Counted from the first letter of the stretch, positions 2,060 through 45,360 are shown. The stretch is DNA of 64,000 nucleotides from an uncultured bacterium (GCA_937930175.1 CALGLP010000013.1:267764-331763), one strand, 5' to 3'. The notes: generated by a model not told the origin, from the sequence alone. Numbers and translations: made by a program.

Positions 2060-2171
2060 ATCGATCTGAAAAAGCCCCATTTTTTTATATCAAAAAGCTT
2101 GATTTTGTTAAATCTTTCCGATAAAATACAACTTCAAATCGTCTAAGTTGATCTAGTTAAAATGAAATCGG

Positions 2172-2206
2172 CATACCACCGATGGTAATCGGTGGTTTTT
2201 TCTAAC
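2172..2206 (+). terminator. intrinsic terminator-like hairpin (ACCACCGAT-GGTA-ATCGGTGGT followed by TTTTTT), 15 nt upstream of the glyQS start
   Basis: Perfect 9-bp stem with a 4-nt loop and a U-run. It could terminate the MOSC gene or act as an attenuator for glyQS. Confidence 0.55.
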
Positions 2207-2220
2207 AGGAAAAACCCTCA

Positions 2221-3537
2221 ATGTCTCAAGACAATCTCATGGAAAAGATCGTTTCCCTTTGCAAGCGCAGAGGCTTCATTTTTCAGTCTTCCGAAATCTA
2301 TGGCGGGCTGGGAAGTGTTTGGGATTATGGGCCCCTTGGGGTTGAGCTCAAGCGTAATGTGAAGGATGCCTGGTGGAAGGCCATGGTTCATGGGCGCGAT
2401 GACATGGTTGGACTCGACGCGGGCATTTTGATGCACCCTAAGACCTGGAAGGCCTCTGGACACACGGAAAATTTTTCTGATATTTTAGTGGATTGCAAAA
2501 CGTGCAAGAAGCGATTTCGCAAGGATCATGTGGGCGATACCTGTCCTGAATGCGGGGCCAAAGATTTTACTGAAGGCCGCGCTTTTAACTTGATGATGAA
2601 GACGTATTTAGGCGCGGTGGAGGATGAGAATAGCCTTTCTTATCTTCGACCCGAAACGGCCCAGGGCATTTTTGTTAATTTTGCCAATGTCGTGGATACG
2701 ATGCACAAGCGCTTGCCTTTTGGCGTGGCGCAAATCGGCAAATCGTTTCGTAATGAAATCACCCCAGGCAATTTTGTTTTTCGCACCCGTGAATTTGAGC
2801 AGATGGAAATTGAATATTTTACACAGCCTGAGGACGCCGACAAGATGTATGAAGAGTGGATTGCCGAGCGTTATCGCTGGTATTTAGATTTGGGGATCAA
2901 AAAAGAAACGCTTCGCCTGCGTCCCCATGCCCAAGATGAGTTGGCGCATTATGCCAAGGGATGCACGGATATTGAATATTTATTTCCCTTTGGATGGTCC
3001 GAGCTTGAAGGCATTGCCAATCGCACGGATTATGATTTGAAGCAGCATGCCAAGCATTCGGGTAAAAATCTTCAATACAAAGACCCCGTGAGCGGTCAAG
3101 AGTTTTATCCGTTTATTATTGAGCCTTCTGGTGGCGTGGATCGCGCGACGTTGGCGTTTCTAACCGACGCGTATTGCGAAGAACAGGTCAATGACGCTAC
3201 ACGCGTTGTTTTAAAGTTTAGCAAGCATTTGGCTCCAATCAAGGTCGCGGTTCTTCCGCTCTTGAAAAAAAACGCCGAACTTGTTACAATGGCAAGGCGC
3301 CTTAAGGGCGATTTATCAAAAATCTTTACCACGGTCTATGATGATACGGCGTCGATTGGTAAACTCTATCGCCGTCAAGATGAAGTGGGAACGTTTTTTT
3401 GTGTGACTGTGGATGTGGATTCGCTCACCGATCATCAGGTCACGGTACGGCATCGGGATACGATGAAGCAGGACAGGATTTCGATTGAACATGTGAAAGA
3501 GTATTTAGGGCAACAATTCTCAACCAACAATAGCTAG
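2221..3537 (+). CDS. glyQS: glycine--tRNA ligase (dimeric class II type)
   Basis: 438 aa. The N-terminus FIFQSSEIYGGLGSVWDYGPLGVELKRNVKDAWW is a GlyRS class II signature. A zinc-ribbon insertion (CKTCKKRF...CPECG) is present. Confidence 0.9.
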   Translation: MSQDNLMEKIVSLCKRRGFIFQSSEIYGGLGSVWDYGPLGVELKRNVKDAWWKAMVHGRDDMVGLDAGILMHPKTWKASGHTENFSDILVDCKTCKKRFRKDHVGDTCPECGAKDFTEGRAFNLMMKTYLGAVEDENSLSYLRPETAQGIFVNFANVVDTMHKRLPFGVAQIGKSFRNEITPGNFVFRTREFEQMEIEYFTQPEDADKMYEEWIAERYRWYLDLGIKKETLRLRPHAQDELAHYAKGCTDIEYLFPFGWSELEGIANRTDYDLKQHAKHSGKNLQYKDPVSGQEFYPFIIEPSGGVDRATLAFLTDAYCEEQVNDATRVVLKFSKHLAPIKVAVLPLLKKNAELVTMARRLKGDLSKIFTTVYDDTASIGKLYRRQDEVGTFFCVTVDVDSLTDHQVTVRHRDTMKQDRISIEHVKEYLGQQFSTNNS

Positions 3538-3538
3538 T

Positions 3539-3646
3539 CCCGTTAGAGAGTAGTAAAGCATTTACGGGGCAAGCTACGGTAGCTAAAATCATAATTAACT
3601 TTTGTTGAGATGACTGCTTTTCAAGTCTGCAGGCTCTCTAACGGGG
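3539..3646 (+). repeat. copy A of the intergenic inverted-repeat element (arms CCCGTTAGAGAG / CTCTCTAACGGGG, interior of about 83 nt). It lies between glyQS and ppdK.
   Basis: Perfect 12-nt terminal inverted repeat. The arms are nearly identical to those of copies B-E at 13.5-16.0 kb, but the interior is divergent. Confidence 0.6.
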
Positions 3647-3671: not shown

Positions 3672-6428
3672 ATGGCAAGTAAGGTAAAAAAGTATGTGTA
3701 CGCGTTTGGGGGTGGAAAAGCTGATGGCAATGAATCGATGAAAAATCTTCTTGGCGGTAAAGGGGCTAATCTCGCCGAGATGGCAGGCAATAAAAATTTA
3801 AGACTTCCCGTTCCTCCAGGCTTCACAATCACAACTGATGTGTGTACGTATTATTATGCTAATAAAAAGAAATATCCTTCTGAGCTCAAGGCGCAAGTTA
3901 AGGCCGCAATGCTTACCGTGGAAAGCATTATGGGTAAGAAGTTTGGCGATGTCAAAGATCCACTTTTGATGTCCGTGCGCTCTGGCGCAAGAAAATCGAT
4001 GCCGGGCATGATGGATACGGTCTTAAATGTGGGTTTAAACGATGAGACTGTTCAGGGATTGATTAAGAAGACTAATAATCCACGCTTTGCCTATGATGCC
4101 TATCGTAGACTTGTGATGATGTATGCGGATGTTGTGATGGAAAAAGCTGCCGGTCGAGAACCAGCCCGCGGCAAGGGGATCAGAAAATTGATGGATGAAA
4201 AATTAAGTGAGCTTAAGTATTCCAAGGGTTACAAATTGGATACGGATCTCTCCGCTGAAGATCTCAAGGGTTTGGTCGCCGAGTTTAAAGATATGGTGAA
4301 AAAAGAAATGGGCCAGGCCTTCCCGGAAAAACCTGAAGATCAGCTTTGGGGTGGAATTGGCGCTGTATTTATGTCATGGAATGGTAAGCGTGCTATTGAT
4401 TATCGTCGCATCGAACGCATTCCAGATGAGTGGGGAACCGCGGTTAATGTGCAGGCCATGGTTTTTGGTAATATGGGTGACAACTCAGCGACGGGTGTTG
4501 CCTTTACGCGAAATCCCGGGAATGGTGAAAAGTATTTTTACGGTGAGTATTTGGTCAACGCTCAGGGTGAAGATGTTGTCGCGGGGATTCGTACACCAGC
4601 TCCCATCAACGATCAGAGCAAAAATGCCCAAAGCGCGAATTTGACGACGCTCGAGAAATTCATGCCCGCGATCTATCAAGAGCTTTTCGATATCCAGAAA
4701 AGACTTGAAAATCACTACAAGGACATGCAGGATATTGAGTTTACCATCGAGAACGGAAAACTGTTCATGCTTCAGTGTCGTGTTGGTAAGCGCAATGGTA
4801 CCGCCGCTGTTCGTATTGCGATTGACATGTATAAGGAAAAGTTTATTGATGCCGCGACCGCGGTTCAACGTGTTCCTTCGCATCAGCTCGTTGAGCTTCT
4901 TCTTCCGATGACAGATCCTAAGGCTGAGGCCGCGACGAAGATTATCGCTAAAGGACTTCCAGCCGGGCCTGGTGGCGCGGTGGGACGCGTTGTTTTTTCA
5001 TCTGCCGAGGCTGTCAAATGGGCGGAGCGAGGCGAAAAAGTGATTCTCGTACGCGAAGAAACATCTCCAGAAGATGTCGATGGTATGCATAAATCCGAAG
5101 CCATTTTGACCTCTAAGGGTGGGATGACATCGCATGCGGCGTTGGTTGCCCGCGGCTGGGGCAAATGCTGCATCGTGGGTTGTGAAGGTCTTGAAATTGC
5201 CGACGATGAAAAATCGTTTACAACGAAAAGTGGCGTGGTCGTTAAAGAAGGGGATTGGATTACTTTAAATGGAACCAAGGGAACTGTTTGCGCTGGCAAG
5301 CTCCCATTGGTGGATCCAGACCTGGAACATAACGATGCGTTTAAAGAGTTGATGAAGCTTGTGGATAAGTTTCGAACTATGAAGGTGCGTACTAATGCTG
5401 ACACACCTAAAGACACTAAGAAGGCGATTGAGTTTGGTGCTGAAGGGATCGGTCTTTTCCGTACCGAGCATATGTTCTATGGCGAAGGAAGTGACAAGCC
5501 ATTATTTTTGTTGCGAAAAATGATCATGTCGAAAACGATCGAAGAAAGAAAGGCCGCTTTGGCGGAGCTTTCCGTTTTCGTGAAAAATGATATCAAGGCC
5601 ACCATGGAAGCGTTGAATGGCTTCCCGATTACCATCCGTTTGCTTGATCCGCCGCTTCATGAGTTCGTTCCCCATAGCGAAGATAAGATCGCTGATATGG
5701 CTAAGGAACTTGGCATTAGCGTTGAAGAAGCCAAGAAGCGCGGCGAAGGCTTAAAGGAAAGCAATCCGATGATGGGTCATCGTGGTGTTCGCTTAGGGGT
5801 GACCTATCCTGAAGTGACCGAGATGCAGGTGCGTGCGATTCTGGAAGCCGCTGCTGAGCTTGTCAAAGCTGGCAAAAAGGTTAATCCAGAGATCATGATC
5901 CCTGTTGTCTGCACGGAGAAAGAACTTTTGGATCAGAAGCTGATTGTTGATCGTATCTATAAGGAAGTCTGCGTTAAATATAGTCTTAAGAAGTTTAATT
6001 ATATGTTTGGGACTATGATTGAAATCCCACGCGCGGCCTTGCAGGCTGGTAAGATTGCTGAAATTGCTGAGTTTTTCAGCTTCGGCACCAATGATCTCAC
6101 GCAGATGAGTTTCGGGTTTTCTCGCGACGATATCGGTGGATTTTTGCAAGATTATATTGGCAGGAAGATTCTTCTTGATGATCCGTTTGGAACGATTGAT
6201 CAAGACGGTGTCGGTGAGTTGATGAAGATTGGTATCGAGCGTGGACGTAAGGTCAAAAAAGACCTTAAAATTGGTATCTGCGGTGAGCATGGCGGAGAGT
6301 CAAAATCCGTGGAGTTCTGTCATGCCGTTGGCATGGATTATGTTTCATGTTCACCGTTTCGAGTTCCGATTGCACGTTTGGCTGCTGCCCAAGCGGCGTT
6401 GAAAAGTACGAAAAAAGGAAAAAAATAA
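3672..6428 (+). CDS. ppdK: pyruvate, phosphate dikinase
   Basis: 918 aa. Matches the PPDK N-terminus (YVYAFGGGKADGNESMKNLLGGKGANLAEM) and contains the phosphohistidine and PEP-utilising domains. Confidence 0.95.
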   Translation: MASKVKKYVYAFGGGKADGNESMKNLLGGKGANLAEMAGNKNLRLPVPPGFTITTDVCTYYYANKKKYPSELKAQVKAAMLTVESIMGKKFGDVKDPLLMSVRSGARKSMPGMMDTVLNVGLNDETVQGLIKKTNNPRFAYDAYRRLVMMYADVVMEKAAGREPARGKGIRKLMDEKLSELKYSKGYKLDTDLSAEDLKGLVAEFKDMVKKEMGQAFPEKPEDQLWGGIGAVFMSWNGKRAIDYRRIERIPDEWGTAVNVQAMVFGNMGDNSATGVAFTRNPGNGEKYFYGEYLVNAQGEDVVAGIRTPAPINDQSKNAQSANLTTLEKFMPAIYQELFDIQKRLENHYKDMQDIEFTIENGKLFMLQCRVGKRNGTAAVRIAIDMYKEKFIDAATAVQRVPSHQLVELLLPMTDPKAEAATKIIAKGLPAGPGGAVGRVVFSSAEAVKWAERGEKVILVREETSPEDVDGMHKSEAILTSKGGMTSHAALVARGWGKCCIVGCEGLEIADDEKSFTTKSGVVVKEGDWITLNGTKGTVCAGKLPLVDPDLEHNDAFKELMKLVDKFRTMKVRTNADTPKDTKKAIEFGAEGIGLFRTEHMFYGEGSDKPLFLLRKMIMSKTIEERKAALAELSVFVKNDIKATMEALNGFPITIRLLDPPLHEFVPHSEDKIADMAKELGISVEEAKKRGEGLKESNPMMGHRGVRLGVTYPEVTEMQVRAILEAAAELVKAGKKVNPEIMIPVVCTEKELLDQKLIVDRIYKEVCVKYSLKKFNYMFGTMIEIPRAALQAGKIAEIAEFFSFGTNDLTQMSFGFSRDDIGGFLQDYIGRKILLDDPFGTIDQDGVGELMKIGIERGRKVKKDLKIGICGEHGGESKSVEFCHAVGMDYVSCSPFRVPIARLAAAQAALKSTKKGKK

Positions 6429-9140: not shown

Positions 9141-9281
9141 GGCACGAGGGAAAAAGGCGCGCAAGTTTATCTAGATCTTTGAAAAGTGTTTTCATTTTGC
9201 GCCTGCCCCGATTGCTCTAGAAAGGCATCATGGTCCTCGGGACAAGCGCAAAATTTCCTAGAAATGATAATAATGAATCTT

Positions 9282-9372
9282 GCGCCTTGCTCACAGCCTT
9301 CTTTGAATTTAGATTTCAGAGAAGCTGGAGCAGGTGCATCCTTCCTTGAGAGGACATTAGCGTAGATGCGCC
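9282..9372 (+). repeat. 91-bp direct repeat, copy 1 (upstream of tRNA-Arg)
   Basis: Identical at 90 of 91 positions to 9453..9543. A degenerate third partial copy lies between them at about 9390..9420. Confidence 0.8.
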
Positions 9373-9452
9373 TTGTCCGCAACTGTCCTTGAATTTAAAT
9401 CAGAGGAAGTTGGGGCAGGCTCATTTCTTCTGGAAGTTATATTTAGGAAAAT

Positions 9453-9543
9453 GCGCCTTGCTCACAGCCTTCTTTGAATTTAGATTTCAGAGAAGCTGGA
9501 GCAGGTGCATCCTTCCTTGTGAGGACATTAGCGTAGATGCGCC
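9453..9543 (+). repeat. 91-bp direct repeat, copy 2; its last 5 nt are the first 5 nt of tRNA-Arg
   Basis: Direct comparison with 9282..9372. Confidence 0.8.
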
Positions 9544-9612
9544 TGTAGCTCAGATGGATAGAGCGCGGCTCTCCTAAGGCCGGCGTGGGCGGTTCGAGTC
9601 CGCCCAGGCGCA
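9539..9612 (+). tRNA. tRNA-Arg (anticodon CCT)
   Basis: Manually folded cloverleaf: 7-bp acceptor stem (GCGCCTG/CAGGCGC), D arm GCTC/GAGC, anticodon stem CGGCT/GGCCG with loop CTCCTAA (U33, anticodon CCT, A37), T arm GGCGG-TTCGAGT-CCGCC. CCA is not encoded. Confidence 0.85.
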
Positions 9613-9639: not shown

Positions 9640-9718
9640 TAGAGCAATCGAGAATCGAGATTTGAAAATGGATTGTTAAGCGACTCGATTGCGATCAATT
9701 CTCAATTATCAATTTTCA

Positions 9719-10069
9719 ATGTCTATGGCATTTATTTTCGAAAACCTCGATGTTTATCAGAAGGCTGTTGATTTTGCAGATGAGGTTTCTTCTTTAGCGG
9801 AAAAGTTCCCTAGAGGAAGTTACTACTTAGTTGACCAGCTCAATAGGGCCGCACTATCGATAGCCACTAATATCGCAGAAGGAAACGGAAAATATCACAA
9901 AGCCGATAGGATTAATTTTTTTAGGATTGCTCGTGGATCTGCTTTTGAATGTGTTCCTATCCTGGAAATTTGCAAGCGTAAGTCTTTGGTTGAAGAAAGA
10001 ACACATGCCGATTACAAGAAGAAGCTTGAAGATATCTGCAAGATGTTGTCCGGTCTTATGAATTATTAA
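9719..10069 (+). CDS. four-helix-bundle protein (TIGR02436 / 23S rRNA intervening-sequence protein family), copy 1
   Basis: Family signature: LDVYQKAVDFADEV...LVDQLNRAALSIATNIAEGNGKY...RIARGSAFEC. Three paralogs lie at 49031, 50230 and 59884. Confidence 0.8.
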   Translation: MSMAFIFENLDVYQKAVDFADEVSSLAEKFPRGSYYLVDQLNRAALSIATNIAEGNGKYHKADRINFFRIARGSAFECVPILEICKRKSLVEERTHADYKKKLEDICKMLSGLMNY

Positions 10070-10101
10070 ATAGAGCCATCGAGAAAGGTATCCTTCATTT
10101 C

Positions 10102-10443
10102 ATGAAAATCATAACACAAAGTATCACCCTTAATGAAATCAAAGCCATGGCCACAGCCATTTTTGGTGATTTAGTTAAGGCTGTTGTTGACATTGATCGG
10201 GAGCTGATCGCCGTTGACGCTGAGCTTCATTCGGATCTTGAGGCGTTGCTCCTGGAAGATGGTTCAAAGCAAAAAAGCCTTTGGGGGATCAACCTTTACC
10301 CGGATATGCAAGGGGATGATTTTATTGAATTTGATTCGATGATCAATGTGCGTCCCTCCCAGGGCAATCGAAGCCGCAATGTTGAGGATGGCGCCTTGCG
10401 CAAGCAAATCATGGAGATCGTTTCAAAGAGAGTCAGGGTATGA
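10102..10443 (+). CDS. hypothetical protein
   Basis: 113-aa ORF, acidic, no TM segment. Overlaps the next ORF by 4 nt (ATGA). Confidence 0.4.
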   Translation: MKIITQSITLNEIKAMATAIFGDLVKAVVDIDRELIAVDAELHSDLEALLLEDGSKQKSLWGINLYPDMQGDDFIEFDSMINVRPSQGNRSRNVEDGALRKQIMEIVSKRVRV

Positions 10444-12903: not shown

Positions 12904-13521
12904 ATGAGAGAGACAACTCAAGCCAGCTATTTTAAGATGACCAAAGAAGAAATCTATGAGCATCTTGCGCAAGTGTACTTGGGCAAGAAGTCACAGGATA
13001 AAAAAGATTTACCTAAAAAGACATTCTTTTCGCGATTTCCCAAAGAAGCTAAAGTCATAGCAACGGTGTTAGCGATTGGCGTTGCGTTTTATACCCTGAC
13101 TGCGTTTCTTTCTCGTCGAGATGAAGCCATGAAGGCCACCATCCTTTTTGCCTTAAACAATTCCCCGATTCGCGTGACCTATGACCTTAATGATCCTTTT
13201 CCGCAAGTCAAAGATTTTTCTATTGCGATTCCTCAGGCGGATATGGCTAAGTATAAGAGCCTGGCCTTTTCCATTCGCGGACTTGAAGAAGGGTATCCGG
13301 GGGTTGTTAAAGTGGTTTTGCGGAATAAGAAAAATGAGTTGGCTTTTGTGTATGTTGAGGATGTCAACATGAAATGGAAACATCATGTGGTCGCGCTTAC
13401 GGATTTTTCAACAATTACAGACTGGACAAGTCTTAGTGAAGTTGCGTTTGTGTTGGAAGGATGGAACGTTAAAAAGAAAAAGGGCAGTATCTTAATCGAT
13501 GACATTTGTTTTTCAAAGTGA
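12904..13521 (+). CDS. hypothetical single-pass membrane protein with an extracytoplasmic domain
   Basis: 205-aa ORF with one TM segment (VIATVLAIGVAFYTLTAFL). No known domain recognised. Confidence 0.45.
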   Translation: MRETTQASYFKMTKEEIYEHLAQVYLGKKSQDKKDLPKKTFFSRFPKEAKVIATVLAIGVAFYTLTAFLSRRDEAMKATILFALNNSPIRVTYDLNDPFPQVKDFSIAIPQADMAKYKSLAFSIRGLEEGYPGVVKVVLRNKKNELAFVYVEDVNMKWKHHVVALTDFSTITDWTSLSEVAFVLEGWNVKKKKGSILIDDICFSK

Positions 13522-13522
13522 C

Positions 13523-13624
13523 CCCGTTAGAGAACTTCATACTAACGGTTTGATTGTCAAGGGTGATACACCGCGAGCGGTGTAGGGCCATAAACGGTAT
13601 TATTGGTAGTTTTCTCTAACGGGG
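13523..13624 (+). repeat. copy B of the intergenic inverted-repeat element (CCCCGTTAGAGAA ... TTCTCTAACGGGG)
   Basis: 13-nt perfect terminal inverted repeat. The interior (TAACGGTTTGATTGTCAAGGGTGATACA ... AACGGTATTATTGG) is shared with copies C, D and E. The element starts 2 nt after the upstream stop codon. Confidence 0.7.
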
Positions 13625-13655
13625 CTAAATTAATCAAAAGCGGAGGATAAGCTTC

Positions 13656-14834
13656 ATGCGAATTATTGCCATTGCGAATCAAAAGGGCGGATGCGGCAAA
13701 ACCACAACGGCGATCAATCTAAGCTCGGCCTTGGCCATCAATGGCCAAAAGGTTTTGCTCGTTGATTTGGACCCGCAGGCGCATGCGTCGCTAGGACTTA
13801 ACATTAATGCGCAGAATACCATTTATAATGTCATCTCTAAGCTTGCTCCGCGCAAGCTTTCCCTAAGTCAGATCATCGTGAAGGTCAAGGATCAGTTTGA
13901 TCTTGTGCCATCCAATGTTTTGGTGGGTACCCTTGAGCAAGAATTGGCTGATGAGATTGGCCGCGAGCTCAAACTTTTTTCCATTTTGAGCGAGCAAAAA
14001 GAGTATGATTATATCATTATTGATTGCCCTCCGAATTTAGGCTTTTTAACGATCAATGCCTTGCGTGCGAGTCAAGAGGTGATTATTCCCGTCGAGGCGA
14101 GCCGTTTTTCCATTCAGGGTGTTGGCCGGTTGATTGATATTATTGAACTCGTCAAGCAACGCCTCAATCATACGATTGACTATCGTGTCTTGGTAACGAT
14201 GTTTGATTCGCGTCTGCGCCATTCGTTTGAGATGCTGGCCAAGATCAAAGAAGATTTTGCGAAAAATTTAGCAGGGACGATCATTCATCTTAATGTCAAA
14301 CTCAAAGAAGCCGCGGCCGCAGGCGAGACAGTATCCTGCTATGACAAATATTCGCGGGGAAGCAAAGATTATTTTAGCTTGGCGAAAGAAATGATCATGG
14401 TTGGACAAAAGGATGGTCCTCGCGAGTCTTCGTTGAGCGCCCAGCCTATGGCTAAGTCTGTATCGCAGCCGATGTCTAAAGTGATGCGGGAGACGATTAA
14501 GGAGAAGGCCAAAGATTTTTCTCTTGCGAGCTTTACCTTGGTTGCCCCCGAAGCCAAGAATGTTTATTTGGCTGGCGATTTTAACAATTGGTATGTTGAT
14601 GAGTCTTGCCGTATGCAAAAGACGGATGGGCGTTGGCAGTCGGAGTTGAAATTAAAGCCGGGGGTGTACCAATACCGTTTTATTGTGGATGGTAAATGGC
14701 AAAATGATCCGGCGAACACGAGGCGTGTTGAAAATGCCTTTGGGGATTCTAATTCAGTTTTGGAGGTTCACCCCGTTAGAGAATTGCACACTAGCGGTCT
14801 GACTTTAAAGGGTGATGCACCGCCAGCACTGTAA
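13656..14834 (+). CDS. ParA/MinD-family ATPase fused to a C-terminal CBM48 (AMPK-beta / isoamylase-N type glycogen-binding) domain
   Basis: N-terminal deviant Walker A motif KGGCGKTT and ParA-type motifs (VLLVDLDPQAHAS, IIIDCPPNLG). The C-terminal 90 aa (LVAPEAKNVYLAGDFNNWY...GVYQYRFIVDGKWQNDPAN) match the CBM48/AMPK1_CBM fold signature. The last codons run into repeat copy C. Confidence 0.8.
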   Translation: MRIIAIANQKGGCGKTTTAINLSSALAINGQKVLLVDLDPQAHASLGLNINAQNTIYNVISKLAPRKLSLSQIIVKVKDQFDLVPSNVLVGTLEQELADEIGRELKLFSILSEQKEYDYIIIDCPPNLGFLTINALRASQEVIIPVEASRFSIQGVGRLIDIIELVKQRLNHTIDYRVLVTMFDSRLRHSFEMLAKIKEDFAKNLAGTIIHLNVKLKEAAAAGETVSCYDKYSRGSKDYFSLAKEMIMVGQKDGPRESSLSAQPMAKSVSQPMSKVMRETIKEKAKDFSLASFTLVAPEAKNVYLAGDFNNWYVDESCRMQKTDGRWQSELKLKPGVYQYRFIVDGKWQNDPANTRRVENAFGDSNSVLEVHPVRELHTSGLTLKGDAPPAL

Positions 14835-14873
14835 GATTGTTAATGGTATTATCGGCAATCTTCTCTAACGGGG
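14771..14873 (+). repeat. copy C of the intergenic inverted-repeat element
   Basis: Arms CCCCGTTAGAGAA / TTCTCTAACGGGG. The interior is similar to B and D. The 5' arm lies inside the last codons of the ParA-CBM48 CDS. Confidence 0.7.
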
Positions 14874-14932
14874 TGAACCCCATAGAGAAATAAAATCTTT
14901 CGCGGTTTCCGTTGAAGGTGAAAAGAGCCTTT

Positions 14933-14983
14933 AGTCTTATAGGGTGATAACGATTAACAAGTTGTTGGTTTTCTCTAATGGGG
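14933..14983 (+). repeat. copy E (3' half only) of the intergenic element, ending TTCTCTAATGGGG 9 nt before the ATG at 14993
   Basis: GGGTGATAACGATTAACAAGTTGTTGG TTTTCTCTAATGGGG matches the 3' halves of B, C and D. No 5' arm is present. Confidence 0.5.
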
Positions 14984-14992
14984 TAAACTATA

Positions 14993-15307
14993 ATGGAAAC
15001 AGTTCAAGGCCAAGAAATCAATGAGGGCAAGATCTACGCTGTGATCGGGTATTTGTGGATTTTTTGTGTGATCCCATTGATTCTAAAAAAAGACAATAAG
15101 TTTGTCTTAAATCACAGCCGTCAGGGGCTTGTCATCTTTATTGGTGTTGTTGGAGTATTTATTTTGAGCATTCTCGTTGATTGGTTCTTGCGTCCAGGTC
15201 TATTTGTCTTTGGGATTTTATCGCTCTGGGGGATTATTGCTGCACTGGCGGGACAAGACTTGCGCATTCCGCTTATTCGTGATTATGCGGATAAAATTAT
15301 TTTGTAA
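14993..15307 (+). CDS. small membrane protein (DUF4870-like topology, two TM segments)
   Basis: 104-aa ORF with two hydrophobic segments. The GGGG of the repeat arm serves as an SD-like element. Confidence 0.5.
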   Translation: METVQGQEINEGKIYAVIGYLWIFCVIPLILKKDNKFVLNHSRQGLVIFIGVVGVFILSILVDWFLRPGLFVFGILSLWGIIAALAGQDLRIPLIRDYADKIIL

Positions 15308-15312
15308 TAATA

Positions 15313-15894
15313 ATGCCTGACTTTCGTAAAATTCTATTTGGCATACGTGACAAGAATTATGTGGATGTTACGACTCTTTCGGCGCCTTCCCAGAGGAAGG
15401 CGCCTTTTTCTTTAAAGAGTGTTAAGATCAAAAAGATCGTTGCTTCTAAGTCGCTGGCCAAGAAGAAGATTCTTAGAGTAGGCAAGCCCAAGGCATTGAA
15501 TTTCTTTAGCAAGACCAAGAAGCCTTCCCAAAAGGTTGCCAAGCCTTCCTTAGCGCCCATCAAACTCGTTAAACCTCCTAAGGCAGTCCTGAAGACTCCT
15601 AAGCCTCTTAAGCCTGCAAAGCCACAGGCTCTCAAGGAAACTTTGGCCGGCGAGATTGTTCATTTTTTTGATAAGATTCAAGTTTGTGTTGTGAAGCTTG
15701 CATGTGACTTAAAGGTCGGGGATCAGCTGCATTTTAAAGGAAAGGGAACAGATTTTGTGCAGGCGCTTGATTCGATGCAAATTAATCATCAACAAGTGAT
15801 GATGGCCAAAAAAGGCCATGAAATCGGCCTTAAGGTCAAAAAAGAAGTGCGTGTTGGAGATAAAGTTTTTTTGAGCTTAAGCCAAAGGGTTTAA
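15313..15894 (+). CDS. Lys/Pro-rich (histone H1-like, disordered) protein with a C-terminal beta-barrel resembling translation-factor domain II
   Basis: N-terminal 110 aa are K/P/A-rich. The C-terminal VGDQLHFKGKG...IGLKVKKEVRVGDKVF has an EF-Tu-domain-2-like pattern. Confidence 0.45.
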   Translation: MPDFRKILFGIRDKNYVDVTTLSAPSQRKAPFSLKSVKIKKIVASKSLAKKKILRVGKPKALNFFSKTKKPSQKVAKPSLAPIKLVKPPKAVLKTPKPLKPAKPQALKETLAGEIVHFFDKIQVCVVKLACDLKVGDQLHFKGKGTDFVQALDSMQINHQQVMMAKKGHEIGLKVKKEVRVGDKVFLSLSQRV

Positions 15895-15947
15895 GAAATC
15901 AAGGCCTTGATTATTTTTTTATTAGAATTGTGGTATACTTAAAGTAG

Positions 15948-16041
15948 AGAACGTTAGGCTAACGGTTTGATCATCAAGAGCGATGCATCTCTAGCAATCT
16001 AGGATGATAAACGATATTATTGGCAGTTTTTTCTAACGGGG
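15948..16041 (+). repeat. copy D of the intergenic element (5' arm eroded; 3' arm TTTTCTAACGGGG ends 5 nt before the ATG at 16047)
   Basis: Interior TAACGGTTTGATCATCAAGAGCGATGCA ... AACGATATTATTGGCAG aligns with copy B. Confidence 0.6.
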
Positions 16042-16046
16042 TGAAT

Positions 16047-17465
16047 ATGAATAAAGGCCAGAGTGCGATTGAATATATTTTATTGGTGACCTGTATCATT
16101 GCGGTCTTGATTGCTTTTCTTGCGCCCAATGGCATTATGTCGCGCACGATTGATTCAGGGATTAACGCGACTGTTGATCAGATTGCTTTGATGACGGCTG
16201 GAACAAATTTCGAGTCTGGGGTTCAGCACGGTCATTGCGGAGACGGTTTATGTGTGCCCCCTGAAACTCTTGTTAATTGTCCACAAGATTGTCTGCCGTC
16301 TACTCCTGTTTGCGGGGATGGTGTTTGCGAGTTTCCTCCGGAAACAATTGCCACGTGTCCTCAGGATTGCAATTCTTCCTCTTTTAACTGTCCGTTTAAA
16401 TATACTCCCGCCGCATGTAATGCGGAATTAGGTTGCCGATGGGTGGTCGACTGTCAAGAATCTTCTGGGATGTGCACGCAATGCAGCTATGGGGTTTGTA
16501 AGCCAAACAGCTGGCAATGTCCATCGGGGTCAACAAGTTCATTTGATCCATGTGCTGATTGTAATCAGACCGCCTGTTGTGGACAGAATTGTTATGCCTG
16601 TCAATATTCAGGGGGATCGTTTTGCGGAAACTATCTCTGCGAATGGCCGCCAGAAAATCCAGATAATTGCCCGGTTGATTGCCAAGCGACACCAGTCTGC
16701 AATAATAATGGAATATGTGAGCCACCCACAGAGACTTGTGCGAATTGCCCGGATGATTGTTGTGTCGATTGCTCAGAAGGAACGCAAGCAAACTGTGGGA
16801 TATCTTCTGGCTTTGAAAATTGCTATAGGTTTATTATGACAGAGTATCAAGGGTTTTGTGTTGATAACTATAAAGGATGTTACGTGGACGGTGCTTCAAC
16901 TGGCTATACGACTTATTGTAGCGGTCAGACATGTCGATGCGTTTTGCAGCCTAGTATGTGCGGGACAGCCTATCCGGATTGTGAAGCATGCAATAATAAT
17001 GGTGTATGTGAATCAGGAGAGACTTGCACGAATTGTCCGGATGATTGCTGTCCTCCCCCACCTGTGTGCAATAATAATGGTGTATGTGAATCAGGAGAGA
17101 CTTGTGCGAATTGCCCGGATGATTGCTGTCCTCCGCCACCTGTGTGCAATAATAATGGTGTATGTGAATCCGGAGAGACTTGCGCGAATTGTCCGGATGA
17201 TTGCTGTCCTCCTGACTGTGCTAGCTACACGAATCCTTCCGCATGTAATGCTTTCAGCAGTTGTCAATGGATCAACCTTCTTTCATGGAATTCAGTGACT
17301 AGCTCTTGCGTTCAGGGTGCAAATTTTTGCAGTTCTTCCAGCAGTTGTCCATCAGGATATCATCCTGGAGGTATTTCGAACCCATGTATTTGTAGCGGGA
17401 TCAACCCAGGCTGTTGCAGCGGAGGTAATTGGACGAATCAATGCCTTGCTTGTACGCAGAATTAA
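16047..17465 (+). CDS. Flp/Tad-type prepilin-like N-terminus (class III signal peptide, G|QSAIEY) fused to a roughly 440-aa cysteine-rich tandem-repeat domain
   Basis: MNKG|QSAIEYILLVTCIIAVLIAF carries the Flp-pilin IEY motif with Glu at +5. The rest is about 20% Cys, with 3-4 tandem units CNNNGVCESGETC(A/T)NCPDDCCPPPPV. Confidence 0.6.
   Translation: MNKGQSAIEYILLVTCIIAVLIAFLAPNGIMSRTIDSGINATVDQIALMTAGTNFESGVQHGHCGDGLCVPPETLVNCPQDCLPSTPVCGDGVCEFPPETIATCPQDCNSSSFNCPFKYTPAACNAELGCRWVVDCQESSGMCTQCSYGVCKPNSWQCPSGSTSSFDPCADCNQTACCGQNCYACQYSGGSFCGNYLCEWPPENPDNCPVDCQATPVCNNNGICEPPTETCANCPDDCCVDCSEGTQANCGISSGFENCYRFIMTEYQGFCVDNYKGCYVDGASTGYTTYCSGQTCRCVLQPSMCGTAYPDCEACNNNGVCESGETCTNCPDDCCPPPPVCNNNGVCESGETCANCPDDCCPPPPVCNNNGVCESGETCANCPDDCCPPDCASYTNPSACNAFSSCQWINLLSWNSVTSSCVQGANFCSSSSSCPSGYHPGGISNPCICSGINPGCCSGGNWTNQCLACTQN
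16990..17222 (+). repeat. 3 x 78-bp in-frame tandem repeat inside the Cys-rich pilin-like gene
   Basis: Units at 16990, 17068 and 17146 are more than 90% identical. An older diverged unit lies near 16693. Confidence 0.8.
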
Positions 17466-43042: not shown

Positions 43043-43057
43043 GGAGAGGCTATAAAA

Positions 43058-43086
43058 GGGCGGCCCCGCCGTTGGCGGGGCTGCCC
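43058..43086 (+). terminator. GC-rich hairpin GGGCGGCCCCGCC-GTT-GGCGGGGCTGCCC
   Basis: 13-bp stem directly after the stop. No strong U-tract. Confidence 0.5.
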
Positions 43087-43195: not shown

Positions 43196-45160
43196 ATGAA
43201 CTACGCCACGGTTCTCTCGAAGCACAAGGTTGTTGTTCGGTTAGTCACGTTAGTTGTTTTCTTGAATTTTGCCATCCCGCCGCAAGCTATTTCCGCGGCA
43301 CAGTCCCAATCCCAAGCCTTTAAGCGTAATGTTGCCCCGGCGAAAGCGCTTGCCACGTCAGACCAGGAGAAAGCTAATAACCGCATTCCGGAGGAGTTTT
43401 TTGATAGTTCTTCTGGAGATGACGATTTTGGCGATGGTAAATTGACCGAGTTTGTGATCAATGGGAACTTTGAAACACCGACAAGTTTTACTCCGCCGAT
43501 ATATGACCCCTACATGCCTTTTGCTTTCGATGAGGTGTACGCTTGGCAGGATTCCCATGGCACTCCCCAAATTAAGCCATATTTTAAAACCGAGCCTGAT
43601 CATTATGCTCAGCTTGTAACTCTTTGCGATTCTAACCATCATAAAGGTGAAGGTATTTTTGCGAACGTTGCTCTAGTGTCTGGCGAAGAATATGTTTTGC
43701 AATTTAATTATAAGCTTGTGGAGTCAGAGATGACTTCACCGAGGAACGATCTTTTTATTTGTCTGTTCAACGCTGATCCGCCAGGACTTTCTGGGTCCAA
43801 CCAGGAGCCAGTACCAGCCGTAATGACTCCTGAAGGTGGAGCGATCAATATTTATGAAGCATATGCGCTTGCGCCAGACGCCCAGTGGCATACTGCTAAT
43901 GTAACTTTTACAGCGCCGACCGATGTGAACTATATCAAGCTGGGTATCTATGGTAAGTCGGATGGCTCAATCACGTACTCTAAGATAAATATTTTAATTG
44001 ATGATGTCAGTATTACCCCACAGGGGAATGTTATCACCGTCCAAACCGATGGCACGCTAGGTGCTGAGGTTAAAAACATCCTGACTGGTGAGCAGGGAGC
44101 AATATTAACCTACAATGTAGCCGAAGGCGATCCATTTTATGGAGAGTTTGATCCCCTGCCTCCAGCAAGCCATACCTTTAAGGGATGGAAATGGGAGGCG
44201 TCTGATGATCCAACGCTCATAATTGACATCAAGAACGTTACGGAGAATGTCACGGCGACTGCGTTATTTGAGATCAAGAAGCTCACCTTGACCTACACCG
44301 CGGGAGCTGGTGGTCGCATTAAGGGTCCAAGCCCGCAAGTCATTCCTTATGGCAATGACGGCAAGCCGGTGACGGCTGTACCGGATAACCAGCATCAGTT
44401 TGTCAATTGGAGCGATGGGTCCACCATGAACCCGCGCCACGATCTTGATGTCACGGCCAATATTGATGTTGTGGCAAACTTTGAACCTATTGTGCAAAAC
44501 TATAAGGTTTCCGGGTATGCCTATATCAATTTTCTCTGGGATAAGGACGAGGGGCAAAAAGATTATTCGGGATTTATCCCATTTATTGGCGGAGAGATCG
44601 TTGTGATCGATCCCAAGACCCAAGAGATCATTGAGAATTTAGGCATTGTCACCGATGAGCAGGGATATTTCGAGTTTACCAAGCCTGCGCATTGGAGCGG
44701 TTCGATAGCTGTTTATCGTCCGGCTAATGGTCAGATCCTCTTTGATTTCGTCCTCCTTTATCCGTTGAATTATATTGCTGACTTAACGGCTGATACCTTG
44801 ATCTATAACTTTGATACAACCGGGATCGGAGGGCATTTACCTCAGAAAATTTGGCATATCGGTTATTTCAATATGGAGCCGTATATTACAGGCAAGGTTA
44901 CTGATGAGCAGGGTAATCCTGTGGCGGGTGTGAAAATTAATAGCTGGGGAACATCAAGCAGTTATTACACCGATGAACAGGGAGAATATAAGTATCCATT
45001 TATTATGTTTCATCCTGAGCTTTGGGAAGTCGTTACGCCTGAAGATGATGATCCCAACACAGTCTTTGACCCACCGCAGCGAACACTTAAGCCGATGGAC
45101 CGGGATTATTATCATCAGGATTTTGTGATGATTACAGCGGATCAAGGAAAGAAGAAATAG
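43196..45160 (+). CDS. secreted protein (654 aa) with a List_Bact_rpt domain, paralogous at both termini to the 1763-aa protein
   Basis: N-terminus MNYATVLSKHKVVVRLVTLVVFLNFAIPPQAISAAQ versus MNHATVFSKNKFVVRIVTLIVFINFMIPPQVISASQ. The C-terminal 150 aa are homologous, and both end in ADQGKKK. Confidence 0.75.
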   Translation: MNYATVLSKHKVVVRLVTLVVFLNFAIPPQAISAAQSQSQAFKRNVAPAKALATSDQEKANNRIPEEFFDSSSGDDDFGDGKLTEFVINGNFETPTSFTPPIYDPYMPFAFDEVYAWQDSHGTPQIKPYFKTEPDHYAQLVTLCDSNHHKGEGIFANVALVSGEEYVLQFNYKLVESEMTSPRNDLFICLFNADPPGLSGSNQEPVPAVMTPEGGAINIYEAYALAPDAQWHTANVTFTAPTDVNYIKLGIYGKSDGSITYSKINILIDDVSITPQGNVITVQTDGTLGAEVKNILTGEQGAILTYNVAEGDPFYGEFDPLPPASHTFKGWKWEASDDPTLIIDIKNVTENVTATALFEIKKLTLTYTAGAGGRIKGPSPQVIPYGNDGKPVTAVPDNQHQFVNWSDGSTMNPRHDLDVTANIDVVANFEPIVQNYKVSGYAYINFLWDKDEGQKDYSGFIPFIGGEIVVIDPKTQEIIENLGIVTDEQGYFEFTKPAHWSGSIAVYRPANGQILFDFVLLYPLNYIADLTADTLIYNFDTTGIGGHLPQKIWHIGYFNMEPYITGKVTDEQGNPVAGVKINSWGTSSSYYTDEQGEYKYPFIMFHPELWEVVTPEDDDPNTVFDPPQRTLKPMDRDYYHQDFVMITADQGKKK

Positions 45161-45175
45161 GGAAGGTTAATAAGA

Positions 45176-45204
45176 GGGCGGCCCCGCCGCTGGCGGGGCC
45201 GCCC
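45176..45204 (+). terminator. GC-rich hairpin GGGCGGCCCCGCC-GCTG-GCGGGGCCGCCC
   Basis: Near-identical to the hairpin at 43058. Confidence 0.5.
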
Positions 45205-45360
45205 TTCAGAAAAAAGAAAATAAGAATGCATATCAACCACGCGCAAAAGAAATGAAGGGAAAGGAGGTGAGCTGATCTTAGTCTCTTCGTCAAGCGTCGG
45301 ACGCCATATAAAACCAAAAAGAACTTATTTTTAAAAAATACATAATACAAGGAGAAACTT

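Follow-up and report, generated by a model that had tools for sequence, protein, structure and literature searches.

We find that a 64-kb stretch of DNA from an uncultured bacterium (the window, meaning the whole stretch analysed) carries five ~100-nt elements that are very probably gene-less, non-autonomous members of a mobile-element family and not riboregulators. In the explanation we propose, the elements of this family are very small: complete members would be ~275 bp long with a single gene, and the elements in the window would be their ORF-less counterparts. The observations behind this proposal are a defined end structure, repeats flanking the elements, presence or absence at orthologous sites, the joining of an ORF to the element arms, start and stop codons derived from the flanks, and covariation between the arms. 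The family is widespread and apparently undescribed, and no published description of it was found in the literature searched.

Copies in the window

A first-pass annotation of the window had reported five ~100-nt elements with 13-nt terminal inverted repeats. The elements are real: a search with the arm motif CCCCGTTAGAGAA, allowing up to two mismatches, gave eight matches in the 64-kb window against 0.86 expected, a number reached in 0 of 100 shuffles of the window. A profile built from related copies (nhmmer) recovered all five copies, each on the + strand (E = 1e-23 to 9e-5), and one remnant accompanies them. The copies span 96-109 nt and lack coding capacity. The features are as follows:

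2153..2210, + strand: remnant F, 3' end only (nhmmer E = 9e-4 to profile positions 69-106)
3538..3646, + strand: copy A, ORF-less, with a divergent interior; arms TCCCGTTAGAGAG / CTCTCTAACGGGG (nhmmer E = 9e-5)
13522..13624, + strand: copy B, ORF-less, Omnitrophota type, with exact 13-nt arms
13656..14834, + strand: gene for a ParA-type ATPase with an AMPK1_CBM/CBM48 domain (Pfam; C-termini of homologues compared)
14771..14873, + strand: copy C, ORF-less, with exact arms, within the 3' end of the ParA-CBM48 gene
14874..14877, + strand: TGAA tetranucleotide common to tandem copies C and E (arm, 4 bp, arm), read from the sequence
14878..14983, + strand: copy E, ORF-less and full-length, of a second subtype; 5' arm CCCCATAGAGAA, 3' arm TTCTCTAATGGGG
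~15941..16041, + strand: copy D, ORF-less, with a decayed 5' arm (AAAG-TAGAGAAC) and no intact CCCC
16047..17465, + strand: pilin-like Cys-rich gene (gene call; weak match to Pfam Class_IIIsignal, class III signal peptide)

As annotated, copy A lies between glyQS and ppdK and has a divergent interior; it begins directly past the glyQS stop codon TAG (3535-3537), and the ppdK ATG (3672) lies 25 nt beyond its end. Remnant F, which ends 10 nt before the glyQS ATG (2221), consists of a hairpin (CCACCGAT-GGTA-ATCGGTGG), TT and a decayed arm (TTTCTAACAGGA). Copy B adjoins the TGA stop (13519-13521) of a 205-aa ORF, and the ParA-like gene on its 3' side starts at 13656, 31 nt past the copy, with a GGAGG of its own. 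The annotated arrangement, in which elements abut or overlap upstream stop codons, describes A and B, which directly follow stops, but understates C, where the ParA ORF (13656-14834) reads 64 nt into the copy. The accompanying claim that a copy stands between all cistrons of the locus is incorrect, as no copy lies between 15307 and 15313 or after 17465.

Copy E had been taken for a half-copy, but its 5' arm is present. This arm has lost 1 nt and carries G>A, for which C>T in the 3' arm compensates, turning a G-C pair into A-T. Of the statement that all copies are bounded by arms, the part concerning A, B, C and E stands, but the 5' arm of D is degenerate; likewise, the interior said to be common to B, C, D and E is common to B, C and D, but E belongs to the second subtype.

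The tetranucleotides on the two sides are unequal at copies A (CTAG/TAAA), B (GTGA/CTAA), C (TTCA/TGAA) and E (TGAA/TAAA). The window copies are old and partly decayed; we count them as old because their flanks no longer match, and the 5' arm of D has been lost. Since no window copy has matching flanks, we infer their mobility from the rest of the family and from relatives. No GIY-YIG ORF lies within the 64-kb window.

Ends, flanking repeats and orthologous sites

The two-arm pattern occurs in at least 119 stretches (species) from many phyla, including Omnitrophota and Patescibacteria, with highly varied interiors; part of this taxonomic breadth may come from mis-binned MAG contigs. The ends are 13-14-bp perfect inverted repeats with the consensus Y-CCCGTTAGAGA-N ... 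N-TCTCTAACGGG-R, and the element site is a T-N-N-A tetranucleotide on both sides, mostly TGAA or TAAA. Identical 4-bp flanks border 84 of 121 copies (69%), compared with 9.3% in mismatched pairings, and the flanks are inverted in only three of the 121. The commonest flanking repeats are TTCA, TGAA, TAAA and TTTA. ORF-less copies range from ~31-nt arm-loop-arm hairpins to ~117 nt, and the ~31-nt mini-copies have TAAA repeats too. These copies retain the arms and a covarying hairpin beside the 3' arm; a further, internal arm copy is present in the Omnitrophota subtype. An ORF of at least 60 aa starts at the junction in 54 of the 121 ORF-less copies. We propose that the flanking repeats are target-site duplications, which would arise from a 4-nt staggered cut.

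Syntenic loci in relatives (L123-L127) show both empty and filled states at the sites of B, C and D. Of the window's sites, those of B and C are also filled in L124 and are empty in L125 and/or L126; at the B site, L124 has an E-type copy, and L125 (with a 12-nt spacer) and L126 are empty. The E subtype is also found at L124 1084-1187 and L125 2648-2752. The site orthologous to D contains an ORF-less copy in L126 and a full element encoding a GIY-YIG nuclease in L125, L128 and L129. Elsewhere, an element stands ahead of ychF in L206 and is missing from relatives that are 91% and 83% identical and share the ATGAAGCTATCAATCGG start.

Differing subtypes are thus found at one orthologous site in different genomes; a single simple insertion event would account for this pattern only with additional steps, for example replacement or deletion from arm to arm. 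The same pattern, including the full element at the D site, would suit an alternative in which the arms are sites for a site-specific recombinase, the arm-(R-TNNA-Y)-arm junction is lox/dif-like (11-13-bp inverted arms, 6-bp spacer) and the segments between arms are exchangeable cassettes. It is also in keeping with this alternative that exactly one tetranucleotide separates tandem copies (in L023 and L106, as in C/E), and that the base just beyond the 4-bp repeat tends to equal the terminal base of the element. We nonetheless consider a recombinase very unlikely. Copies of the same subfamily on one contig have different tetranucleotides (L062 TTCA, L064 TACA), most targets, being start or stop codons, have no arm-like sequence to bind, and the vicinity of the elements showed no gene for a tyrosine or serine recombinase. 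Moreover, the core-like motifs run GTTAGAG ... CTCTAAC, the reverse of their order in integron attC (R'' RYYYAAC ... R' GTTRRRY). An attC site was rejected on this order, and a Pfam scan of ten ORFs (eight at 11.1-19.2 kb, glyQS and ppdK) found no integron integrase.

Host genes and the arm helix

Comparison with homologues indicates that copy C has rewritten the C-terminus of the ParA protein: the last 21 codons of the ORF (PVRELHTSGLTLKGDAPPAL and stop) are element sequence, the closest homologues without an element terminate in EVKA or EVKI directly before the stop, and four homologues read into an arm. In L126, where the C site is empty and reads GAGGT TAAA ATCTGATGG, the ParA stop overlaps the next ATG, an overlap that C plus E have broken. 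Insertions into coding sequence occur outside the window as well, including a mini-copy within a heptosyltransferase-like gene in L098.

The first-pass annotation had assigned the GGGG of the 3' arm the role of a Shine-Dalgarno sequence. At D it lies 5 nt ahead of the ATG (16047) of the pilin-like gene and at E 9 nt ahead of the ATG (14993) of a MamF/MmsF-like gene, both spacings as annotated. Because the GGGG at the E site occupies the place of the native GAGG Shine-Dalgarno sequence of empty-site relatives, and because an element 3' arm directly precedes the pilin-like gene in every relative examined, the arm probably serves as ribosome-binding site at E and D, a side effect of the element's architecture (local exaptation). 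At A and B the start codons are 25 and 31 nt away, and the gene behind B has its own GGAGG. A GTG in frame with the pilin-like gene is created at the copy D junction (16041-16043).

A larger role had also been suggested, that of an RBS-sequestering riboregulator, thermosensor or processing site: the 5'-arm CCCC would pair with the 3'-arm GGGG and hide the ribosome-binding site until temperature, a ligand or RNase cleavage opened the helix. Predicted RNA folds do give a stable arm helix in A, B, C and E (z -3.2 to -5.5; A -4.2, B -5.5), the interior hairpins covary, and the extra internal arm copy of the Omnitrophota subtype could form an alternative local hairpin; the GGGG at D and E, and its replacement of the native GAGG at the same spacing at the E site, would also fit. 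However, copy D, the best case for a ribosome-binding site, lacks a CCCC partner and has a fold z of -0.46, and the GGGG at A and B is 25 and 31 nt from the start.

Covariation, which the annotation had named as a check on the long helix, is strong in the arms: 97.2% of cells are paired, double changes occur at 9 of 14 pairs, and the observed values were met in 0 of 500 shuffles. Yet the changes are almost only Watson-Crick double changes with hardly any G-U, which is the pattern that symmetric DNA ends would give. Orientation relative to neighbouring genes is mixed as well (13 co-directional, 5 antisense, several mixed), copies lie within coding sequence (copy C; L098), and copies are missing in close relatives with conserved flanking genes, observations of the kind that the annotation had named as refuting a riboregulator. 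An Rfam scan (gathering threshold and E-value) gave no match at the elements, and an RNA regulator has no place for the flanking repeats or for the ORF-carrying partner described below. We therefore regard a cis-acting RNA regulator as most improbable. What fits is the fallback that the annotation had offered, a REP- or MITE-like selfish repeat, given the inverted repeats, the 4-bp flanks, the empty sites, the intragenic copies, the occurrence in both orientations and the ORF-carrying partner.

Complete elements and the GIY-YIG nuclease

In two relatives (L124 2398-2683 and L125 3793-4072, ~280 bp), the same arms enclose a GIY-YIG ORF of 86 aa. We retrieved 80 metagenome loci through the nuclease protein alone, a test independent of the arms, and found a 5' arm in 68, a 3' arm in 72 and both in 63. 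The complete elements at these 63 two-arm loci have a modal length of 275 bp, and about half of them (33/63) have identical flanks. The 5' arm lies 5-12 nt ahead of the nuclease ORF, the 3' arm forms its last four codons (S-L-T-G), and the stop codon is supplied by the flanking tetranucleotide (TGA in 42 and TAA in 10 of 60 unique elements). Beside the 3' arm, complete elements have a 13-bp internal inverted repeat that is the counterpart of the subterminal hairpin of ORF-less copies. The interiors of Omnitrophota-type ORF-less copies have no similarity to the nuclease gene, and these copies could be an independent lineage that shares the ends only.

The two types of end are associated with different targets. 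In the T...A-ended (Patescibacteria) type, the target is the host start codon, ATGAA. The upstream repeat gives the nuclease the host ATG and ribosome-binding site, so that the protein begins MNPVRE/D..., and the downstream repeat gives GGA-TGA overlapping the regenerated host ATG, an ATGA coupling arrangement. The nuclease shares its reading frame with the host ATG in ~22 of 31 elements of this type, and a host ORF of at least 50 aa runs from the junction in ~25. C...G-ended (Omnitrophota) elements often target a host stop codon (TAA-A or TGA-A), which is kept by the duplication.

The nuclease is a single GIY-YIG domain (Pfam PF01541, E = 1.9e-14), and its nearest solved structure is 1ZG2 (UPF0213; E = 2e-10); 1YWL also matches (E = 6e-3). 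Against TIGR01453 it scores 25.9 bits, under the 56-bit cut-off. Its relatives make up at least 3072 protein clusters, and those drawn from them for comparison never vary at Y5, Y16, G18 or R26, with 99% conservation of E62; the arm-encoded tail xLTx ends 91 of the best 120 relatives. One source labels a relative 'Predicted endonuclease containing a URI domain', and a search of viral contigs for the elements gave 0 hits.

These features bear on an alternative in which the GIY-YIG gene is a passenger and the ORF-less copies are ordinary MITEs, mobilised in trans by a conventional transposase whose gene lies elsewhere (an IS1380/piggyBac-like DDE enzyme, for instance). Inverted repeats with a 4-bp T-N-N-A duplication are a classical DDE signature, and copies consisting of arms only suffice for flanking repeats. 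In addition, GIY-YIG enzymes are not known as transposases or as catalysts of strand transfer, nor is a bare 86-aa nuclease domain known to have strand-transfer activity. Against this, inspection (not exhaustive) of ~1.4 Mb of flanks from more than 200 loci revealed no larger element with these ends, matching flanks and a transposase-like ORF, and no DDE transposase was seen between arms that had matching flanks and lay at most 4 kb from each other. A passenger would also not be expected to be integrated as this ORF is, fused to the ends through its last codons and taking its start and stop from the flanks, nor to be found with both arms in 63 of 80 protein-first loci or to keep its catalytic residues across relatives from at least 3072 clusters. 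We consider the passenger explanation unlikely, and lean slightly towards the nuclease itself recognising the ends and moving both complete and ORF-less copies. Helix requirements suggest that the substrate of the enzyme may be the element in cruciform or folded single-stranded form.

The family shares the features of MITEs: inverted repeats, 4-bp flanking repeats in the family as a whole, small non-coding copies, presence and absence between relatives, and a longer ORF-carrying partner. Closest in build are the Correia/NEMIS elements of Neisseria, which are ~100-150 bp long, have terminal inverted repeats and a short flanking duplication, and lie at gene boundaries; in both cases the copies are co-transcribed with neighbours, pairing between the repeats is possible in mRNA, and expression signals can come from the ends. 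Correia elements, which duplicate TA, are attributed to a DDE-type transposase. In contrast, this family duplicates 4 bp (TNNA), the sole ORF-carrying relative has a GIY-YIG nuclease gene, and the 12-13-bp ends are common to several phyla while interiors differ.

Ends beginning CCC and a TTAA target characterise piggyBac, and CC ends with 4-5-bp repeats characterise IS1380. The apparent likeness extends to CC(C) ends, a 4-bp T..A target and potentially seamless excision; the preferred target here, however, is TRAA and not TTAA, and no DDE transposase was found with these ends. Rickettsia palindromic elements likewise add a peptide by in-frame insertion of a palindromic repeat, as do copy C and the L098 mini-copy, but they are not known to have an autonomous partner, ends conserved in this way or TNNA repeats. 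REP/REPIN-RAYT and IS200/IS605 systems resemble this family in their short palindromic extragenic repeats, hairpins near the ends and one small nuclease-type enzyme thought to move non-autonomous copies. Those enzymes are of the HUH Y1 type, and the elements lack flanking duplications and terminal inverted repeats. We rejected a REP/REPIN-RAYT assignment: the 4-bp flanking repeats are present, there is no GTAG head, and no RAYT or TnpA gene was associated with the elements in the inspected loci, part of whose ORFs were scanned.

GIY-YIG homing endonuclease genes (I-TevI; the T4 seg genes) are also selfish, have the nuclease as sole gene and are often wedged between host genes with overlapping starts and stops. 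They differ in having extra DNA-binding domains, cutting one cognate empty allele and spreading by recombinational repair, without inverted-repeat ends or flanking duplications. The gene here has an intact catalytic domain, but this identity was rejected given one bare 86-aa domain, many unrelated targets, inverted-repeat ends and the lack of viral matches. The encoded protein itself matches the standalone GIY-YIG proteins of the UPF0213/prokaryotic Slx1-like group (COG2827; 1ZG2, 1YWL; E. coli YhbQ), which in the literature searched are putative repair nucleases and not genes of a mobile element with defined ends. UPF0213-type proteins are the minimal form of the GIY-YIG domain, and puzzling recent insertions and fusions of this domain beside or inside other genes have been described (PMC1564403).

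Taken at its broadest, our proposal is of a new class of prokaryotic mobile element whose sole enzyme is a bare 86-aa GIY-YIG nuclease, inserting at host ATGAA or T(A/G)AA codons and spread with its ORF-less parasites over Patescibacteria, Omnitrophota and other phyla; we judge this evenly balanced between right and wrong. If true, a catalytic family not known to drive mobility of the inverted-repeat and duplication type in prokaryotes would do so here, and the element, at ~275 bp, would be smaller than any other autonomous mobile element known. It would bring neither a start nor a stop codon of its own, the duplicated tetranucleotide providing host initiation signals and a stop that overlaps the regenerated ATG. 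Insertion at host codons with a regenerated ATG would minimise harm to the host.

Inverted-repeat elements in the window

The arm motif CCCCGTTAGAGAA, with up to two mismatches allowed, occurs eight times in the window, compared to a mean of 0.86 in dinucleotide-preserving shuffles, and none of 100 such shuffles reached eight. The matches comprise both arms of copies A, B and C, plus the 3' arm of E and that of D. The copy family reported in the first-pass annotation is thus real, with two corrections: copy E, described there as a half-copy, is complete, and the 5' arm of copy D has decayed.

Elements in the window
3538-3646, + strand: copy A, arm pair
13522-13624, + strand: copy B, arm pair
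14771-14873, + strand: copy C, arm pair
14878-14983, + strand: copy E, complete copy, from sequence reading and alignment of the copies
about 15941-16041, + strand: copy D, 5' arm decayed
2153-2210, + strand: sixth copy upstream of glyQS, 3' remnant only, found with a profile from related copies

The 5' arm of E (CCCCATAGAGAA) has lost one T, and a G-to-A change in this arm is compensated by a C-to-T change in the 3' arm. Folding predictions give a stable arm helix for A, B, C and E (z -3.2 to -5.5) but not for D (z = -0.46). The remnant at 2153-2210 lacks a 5' arm; it consists of a hairpin (CCACCGAT/ATCGGTGG), then TT and a decayed arm (TTTCTAACAGGA), and stops 10 nt short of the glyQS start codon. 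The profile from related copies recovered all five of copies A to E on the + strand, an orientation that says little because that strand carries nearly all of the window's genes. Rfam gave no match at the elements, whether the window was searched in full at the gathering threshold or 13400-16200 by E-value.

We noted several other features in the window. A promoter-like extended -10 (TGTGGTATACT) lies at 15925-15945, just 5' of the decayed end of D; a consensus scan did not list it because its -35 is poor, and a transcript from it would have D as a leader without the CCCC partner. The pilin-like gene that follows (ORF 16047-17465) contains three tandem 78-nt repeats at 16989-17222, 87-95% identical, which encode the Cys-rich module CNNNGVCESGETCxNCPDDCCPP, and a fourth, looser copy near 16690-16763. 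Upstream of the element-rich locus, a gene for a 23S rRNA intervening-sequence protein domain (PF05635) adjoins a DUF5674 gene (9689-10443; L120 6064-6788). A 93-nt direct repeat, 99% identical, occupies 9281-9373 and 9452-9544, its second copy entering the 5' end of a tRNA gene (9539-9612). The repeat may represent an attachment site that was duplicated, or one border of an integrated element. GC-rich 31-nt inverted repeats (AAGGGCGGCCCCGCCGTTGGCGGGGCTGCCC) at 43056-43086 and 45176-45206 flank an ORF at 43196-45160, and look like terminator stems since each arm is itself a hairpin.

Element ends, flanking repeats and empty sites

The arms recur far beyond the window. Scanning one genome per species for the two-arm pattern CCCGTTAGAGA-N65-95-TCTCTAACGGG, we found at least 119 stretches, with about two expected by chance by our own estimate. 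They span Omnitrophota, many Patescibacteria lineages, Planctomycetota, Desulfobacterota-like, Nitrospirota-like and WOR-3 bacteria and other MAGs; the same pattern had no match in IMG/VR, where we looked for a phage vector. Among the matches listed, identical ends are a consequence of the search pattern, and the interiors are highly varied. The elements take the form Y-CCCG...CGGG-R; among the matches listed, 61 copies end in the pair C..G and 55 in T..A.

Identical 4-base direct repeats lie outside both ends in 84 of the 121 copies among the matches listed, versus 9.3% for mismatched pairings; inverted flanks are found in only three. The repeats read T-N-N-A, chiefly TTCA, TGAA, TAAA and TTTA in the same matches. 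Where copies stand in tandem, one tetranucleotide is common to both, as between C and E in the window (GGGG TGAA CCCC). We rejected a 5- or 6-bp duplication because the base beyond the 4-bp core matches the element's terminal base in only 55-58%, and kept a 4-bp duplication with the target preference R-TNNA-Y. Copies of ~31 nt consist of two arms and a loop alone, yet are flanked by TAAA repeats:

Mini-elements in L098, a locus from another genome
2081-2112: ~31-32 nt with a 4-6-nt loop, flanked by TAAA; in frame within a heptosyltransferase-like gene, adding a loop absent from two adjacent paralogues
4927-4958: ~31-32 nt with a 4-6-nt loop, flanked by TAAA

Repeats and ends of this kind mark a mobile element rather than a regulatory RNA.

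Loci syntenic with the window (L124, L125 and L126) provide filled and empty sites. The B site is filled in L124 and empty in L125 and L126. In L126, the stop codon of the ParA-CBM48 gene overlaps the ATG of the following gene (GAGGT TAAA ATCTGATGG), and at this point the other loci carry one or two elements: a C-type and an E-type copy in the window, a C-type copy and a longer element in L124, and an E-type copy only in L125. The upstream flank GAGGTTC(A/G)C is common to all three insertions (L124 2294-2683, L125 2648-2752, window 14771-14983). The differing subtypes at one point suggest that elements may replace one another, or may be lost by arm-to-arm deletion within tandem arrays. Nearly all ParA-CBM48 homologues span only 95% of the window protein, and the closest terminate in ...EVKA or ...EVKI; read-through into the arm (...EV-HPVRE...) occurs in the window protein and three others. 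Copy C has rewritten the ParA C-terminus, and C and E together separate two translationally coupled genes. The window copies are old, given that their flanks are now mismatched, D has lost one arm, and the ParA insertion is common to lineages only 78% identical.

The first-pass annotation had favored an RBS-sequestering riboregulator, with a REP- or MITE-like selfish repeat as the fallback. The 4-bp flanking repeats, the empty sites in relatives and the lack of an Rfam match argue against the riboregulator, and the inverted-repeat ends, direct-repeat flanks and empty sites bear out the fallback. The long-range helix that it predicted does covary strongly: across 43 distinct complete elements, complementarity reaches 97.2% over the 14 arm pairs, nine of which show two-sided changes, values reached by none of 500 shuffles and a signal abolished by sliding the partner. 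One-sided (G-U) states are nearly absent from these pairs, a pattern explained at least as well by symmetric DNA ends or by a hairpin in DNA as by a helix in RNA. The core-like motifs GTTAGAG and CTCTAAC raised the possibility of an integron attC site, which we rejected: they stand in reversed order, and the ORFs lie outside the palindrome rather than inside.

A GIY-YIG nuclease gene within the arms

Two of the syntenic loci contain a longer element with the same arms and a single gene:

Long elements
L124 2398-2683: same arms, encodes an 86-aa protein
L125 3793-4072: same arms, encodes an 86-aa protein; site orthologous to window copy D

The 86-aa protein is a GIY-YIG domain (PF01541, E = 1.9e-14). 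Among solved structures its closest relative is the UPF0213 protein 1ZG2, a member of the "standalone Slx1-like" minimal GIY-YIG form (PMC1564403). As an arm-independent test, we searched metagenome contigs with the protein alone and took the best 80 loci. The 5' arm lies 5-21 nt upstream of the ORF in 68 of these and the 3' arm covers the last codons in 72; 63 have both arms, with a modal length of 275 bp, and identical 4-bp flanks enclose 33 of these 63. The nuclease ends in ...KRFLSLTG, the SLTG codons being the arm, and the tetranucleotide beyond the arm supplies its stop codon; among 60 unique elements, 42 use TGA and 10 use TAA. Related proteins form at least 3072 clusters, named only "GIY-YIG nuclease family protein" or "putative endonuclease", and the arm-encoded xLTx ending recurs in 91 of the best 120. 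Within the family Y5, Y16, G18 and R26 are invariant, and E62 is conserved at 99%. The window elements are ORF-less members of the family that also holds these GIY-YIG-encoding elements.

Complete elements also contain a 13-bp internal inverted repeat in which the RKRF codons pair with the KRFL codons, stacking beside the 3' arm. This repeat persists as a covarying subterminal hairpin in Patescibacteria ORF-less copies, which accordingly resemble complete elements with an internal deletion. The ORF-less copies of Omnitrophota carry separate hairpins, conserved and covarying, and an additional internal arm copy. In L001, from another genome, a minus-strand GIY-YIG element (3774-4159) has its ORF broken by a nested ORF-less copy at 3877-3982, indicating that elements insert into one another too. 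L014 (6799-7175), from a MAG labelled Saccharibacteria, has an ORF-less copy followed directly by a GIY-YIG ORF that lacks its own 5' arm and whose 3' arm has decayed; its protein shares 67% identity with the Omnitrophota counterpart, a high value for phyla so distant.

The CC ends and 4-bp T..A repeats presumably resemble those of an IS1380/piggyBac-like MITE, which would be moved by a conventional transposase acting in trans. In the retrieved loci we looked for widely spaced arm pairs whose flanks match, and for ORFs of transposase size beside solo arms. The IS1380/piggyBac-like carrier candidates (1.2-3.5 kb, in L001, L098, L066 and L087) contained ordinary host genes, and we consider a trans-acting transposase unlikely. 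The ORF is fused to the element ends, its catalytic residues are conserved and we saw no other enzyme candidate; from these features we infer that the GIY-YIG nuclease itself may move the elements.

Seating in host genes and implications

Elements ending in T..A are seated as ATGAA-T(element)A-TGAA, a layout in which the duplicated TGAA gives the nuclease start, the nuclease stop and a regenerated host ATG. Among 31 such elements, about 22 have the upstream ATG in the reading frame of the nuclease, giving the N-terminus MNPVRE/D..., and some of these have no internal Met; in about 25 of the 31, a host ORF of 50 aa or more begins exactly at the junction. By this route the nuclease would borrow the host ribosome-binding site along with the start codon, and the host ATG would be restored in an ATGA overlap. 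In the C..G-ended (Omnitrophota) type, the first three repeat bases are often the upstream host stop codon. ORF-less copies likewise have a host ORF beginning at the junction in 54 of 121 (matches listed). For Patescibacteria ORF-less copies, the idea of a preserved short upstream ORF between the host ATG and the junction TGA found no support, as the lengths do not always fall on multiples of three and the one in locus L023 stops early. At ychF, an element is present in L206 and absent from 91%- and 83%-identical relatives with the same ATGAAGCTATCAATCGG start; the upstream intergenic spacer differs, so these relatives do not serve as a base-for-base empty site of the complete element.

The first-pass annotation had also assigned the 3' arm a role as the ribosome-binding site. 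Arm GGGG occupies the position of the native GAGG at the E site, and an element arm lies directly 5' of the pilin-like gene (D site) in every relative examined. The 3' arm probably does double as the RBS at these two copies. This local use follows from an element built for gene boundaries and does not point to a riboregulator; the window repeats are parasites or what is left of them rather than a dedicated system of regulation.

A search of the available literature on the arms, on MITEs in these phyla, on GIY-YIG proteins with repeats or transposases and on the UPF0213 family yielded no description of such an element. We place the window feature among MITE-type elements, as a new family whose partner element is of unprecedented kind. 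Prokaryotic transposition machineries form a short list (DDE, HUH, serine, tyrosine and Cas1). If the nuclease moves the elements, it would add a new enzyme class to this list, and the size limit of an autonomous mobile element would fall to about 275 bp. The family would then offer an explanation for thousands of "GIY-YIG nuclease family protein" and "putative endonuclease" entries in Patescibacteria, Omnitrophota and other uncultured lineages, and the mobile-element model would account for the unexplained recent GIY-YIG insertions and fusions recorded in a 2006 survey (PMC1564403). One paper includes a GIY-YIG protein in its list of genes that other bacteria received from Patescibacteria (PMC12455944). 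The arms may serve as a tracer of horizontal exchange among co-occurring ultra-small bacteria. They are also a simple marker for locating insertions and correcting gene starts and ends in MAG annotation. Insertion at start and stop codons, with host initiation borrowed and the stop placed on the duplicated target, would allow a selfish gene to be tolerated in very compact genomes, and bears on translation initiation and re-initiation in the host organisms.
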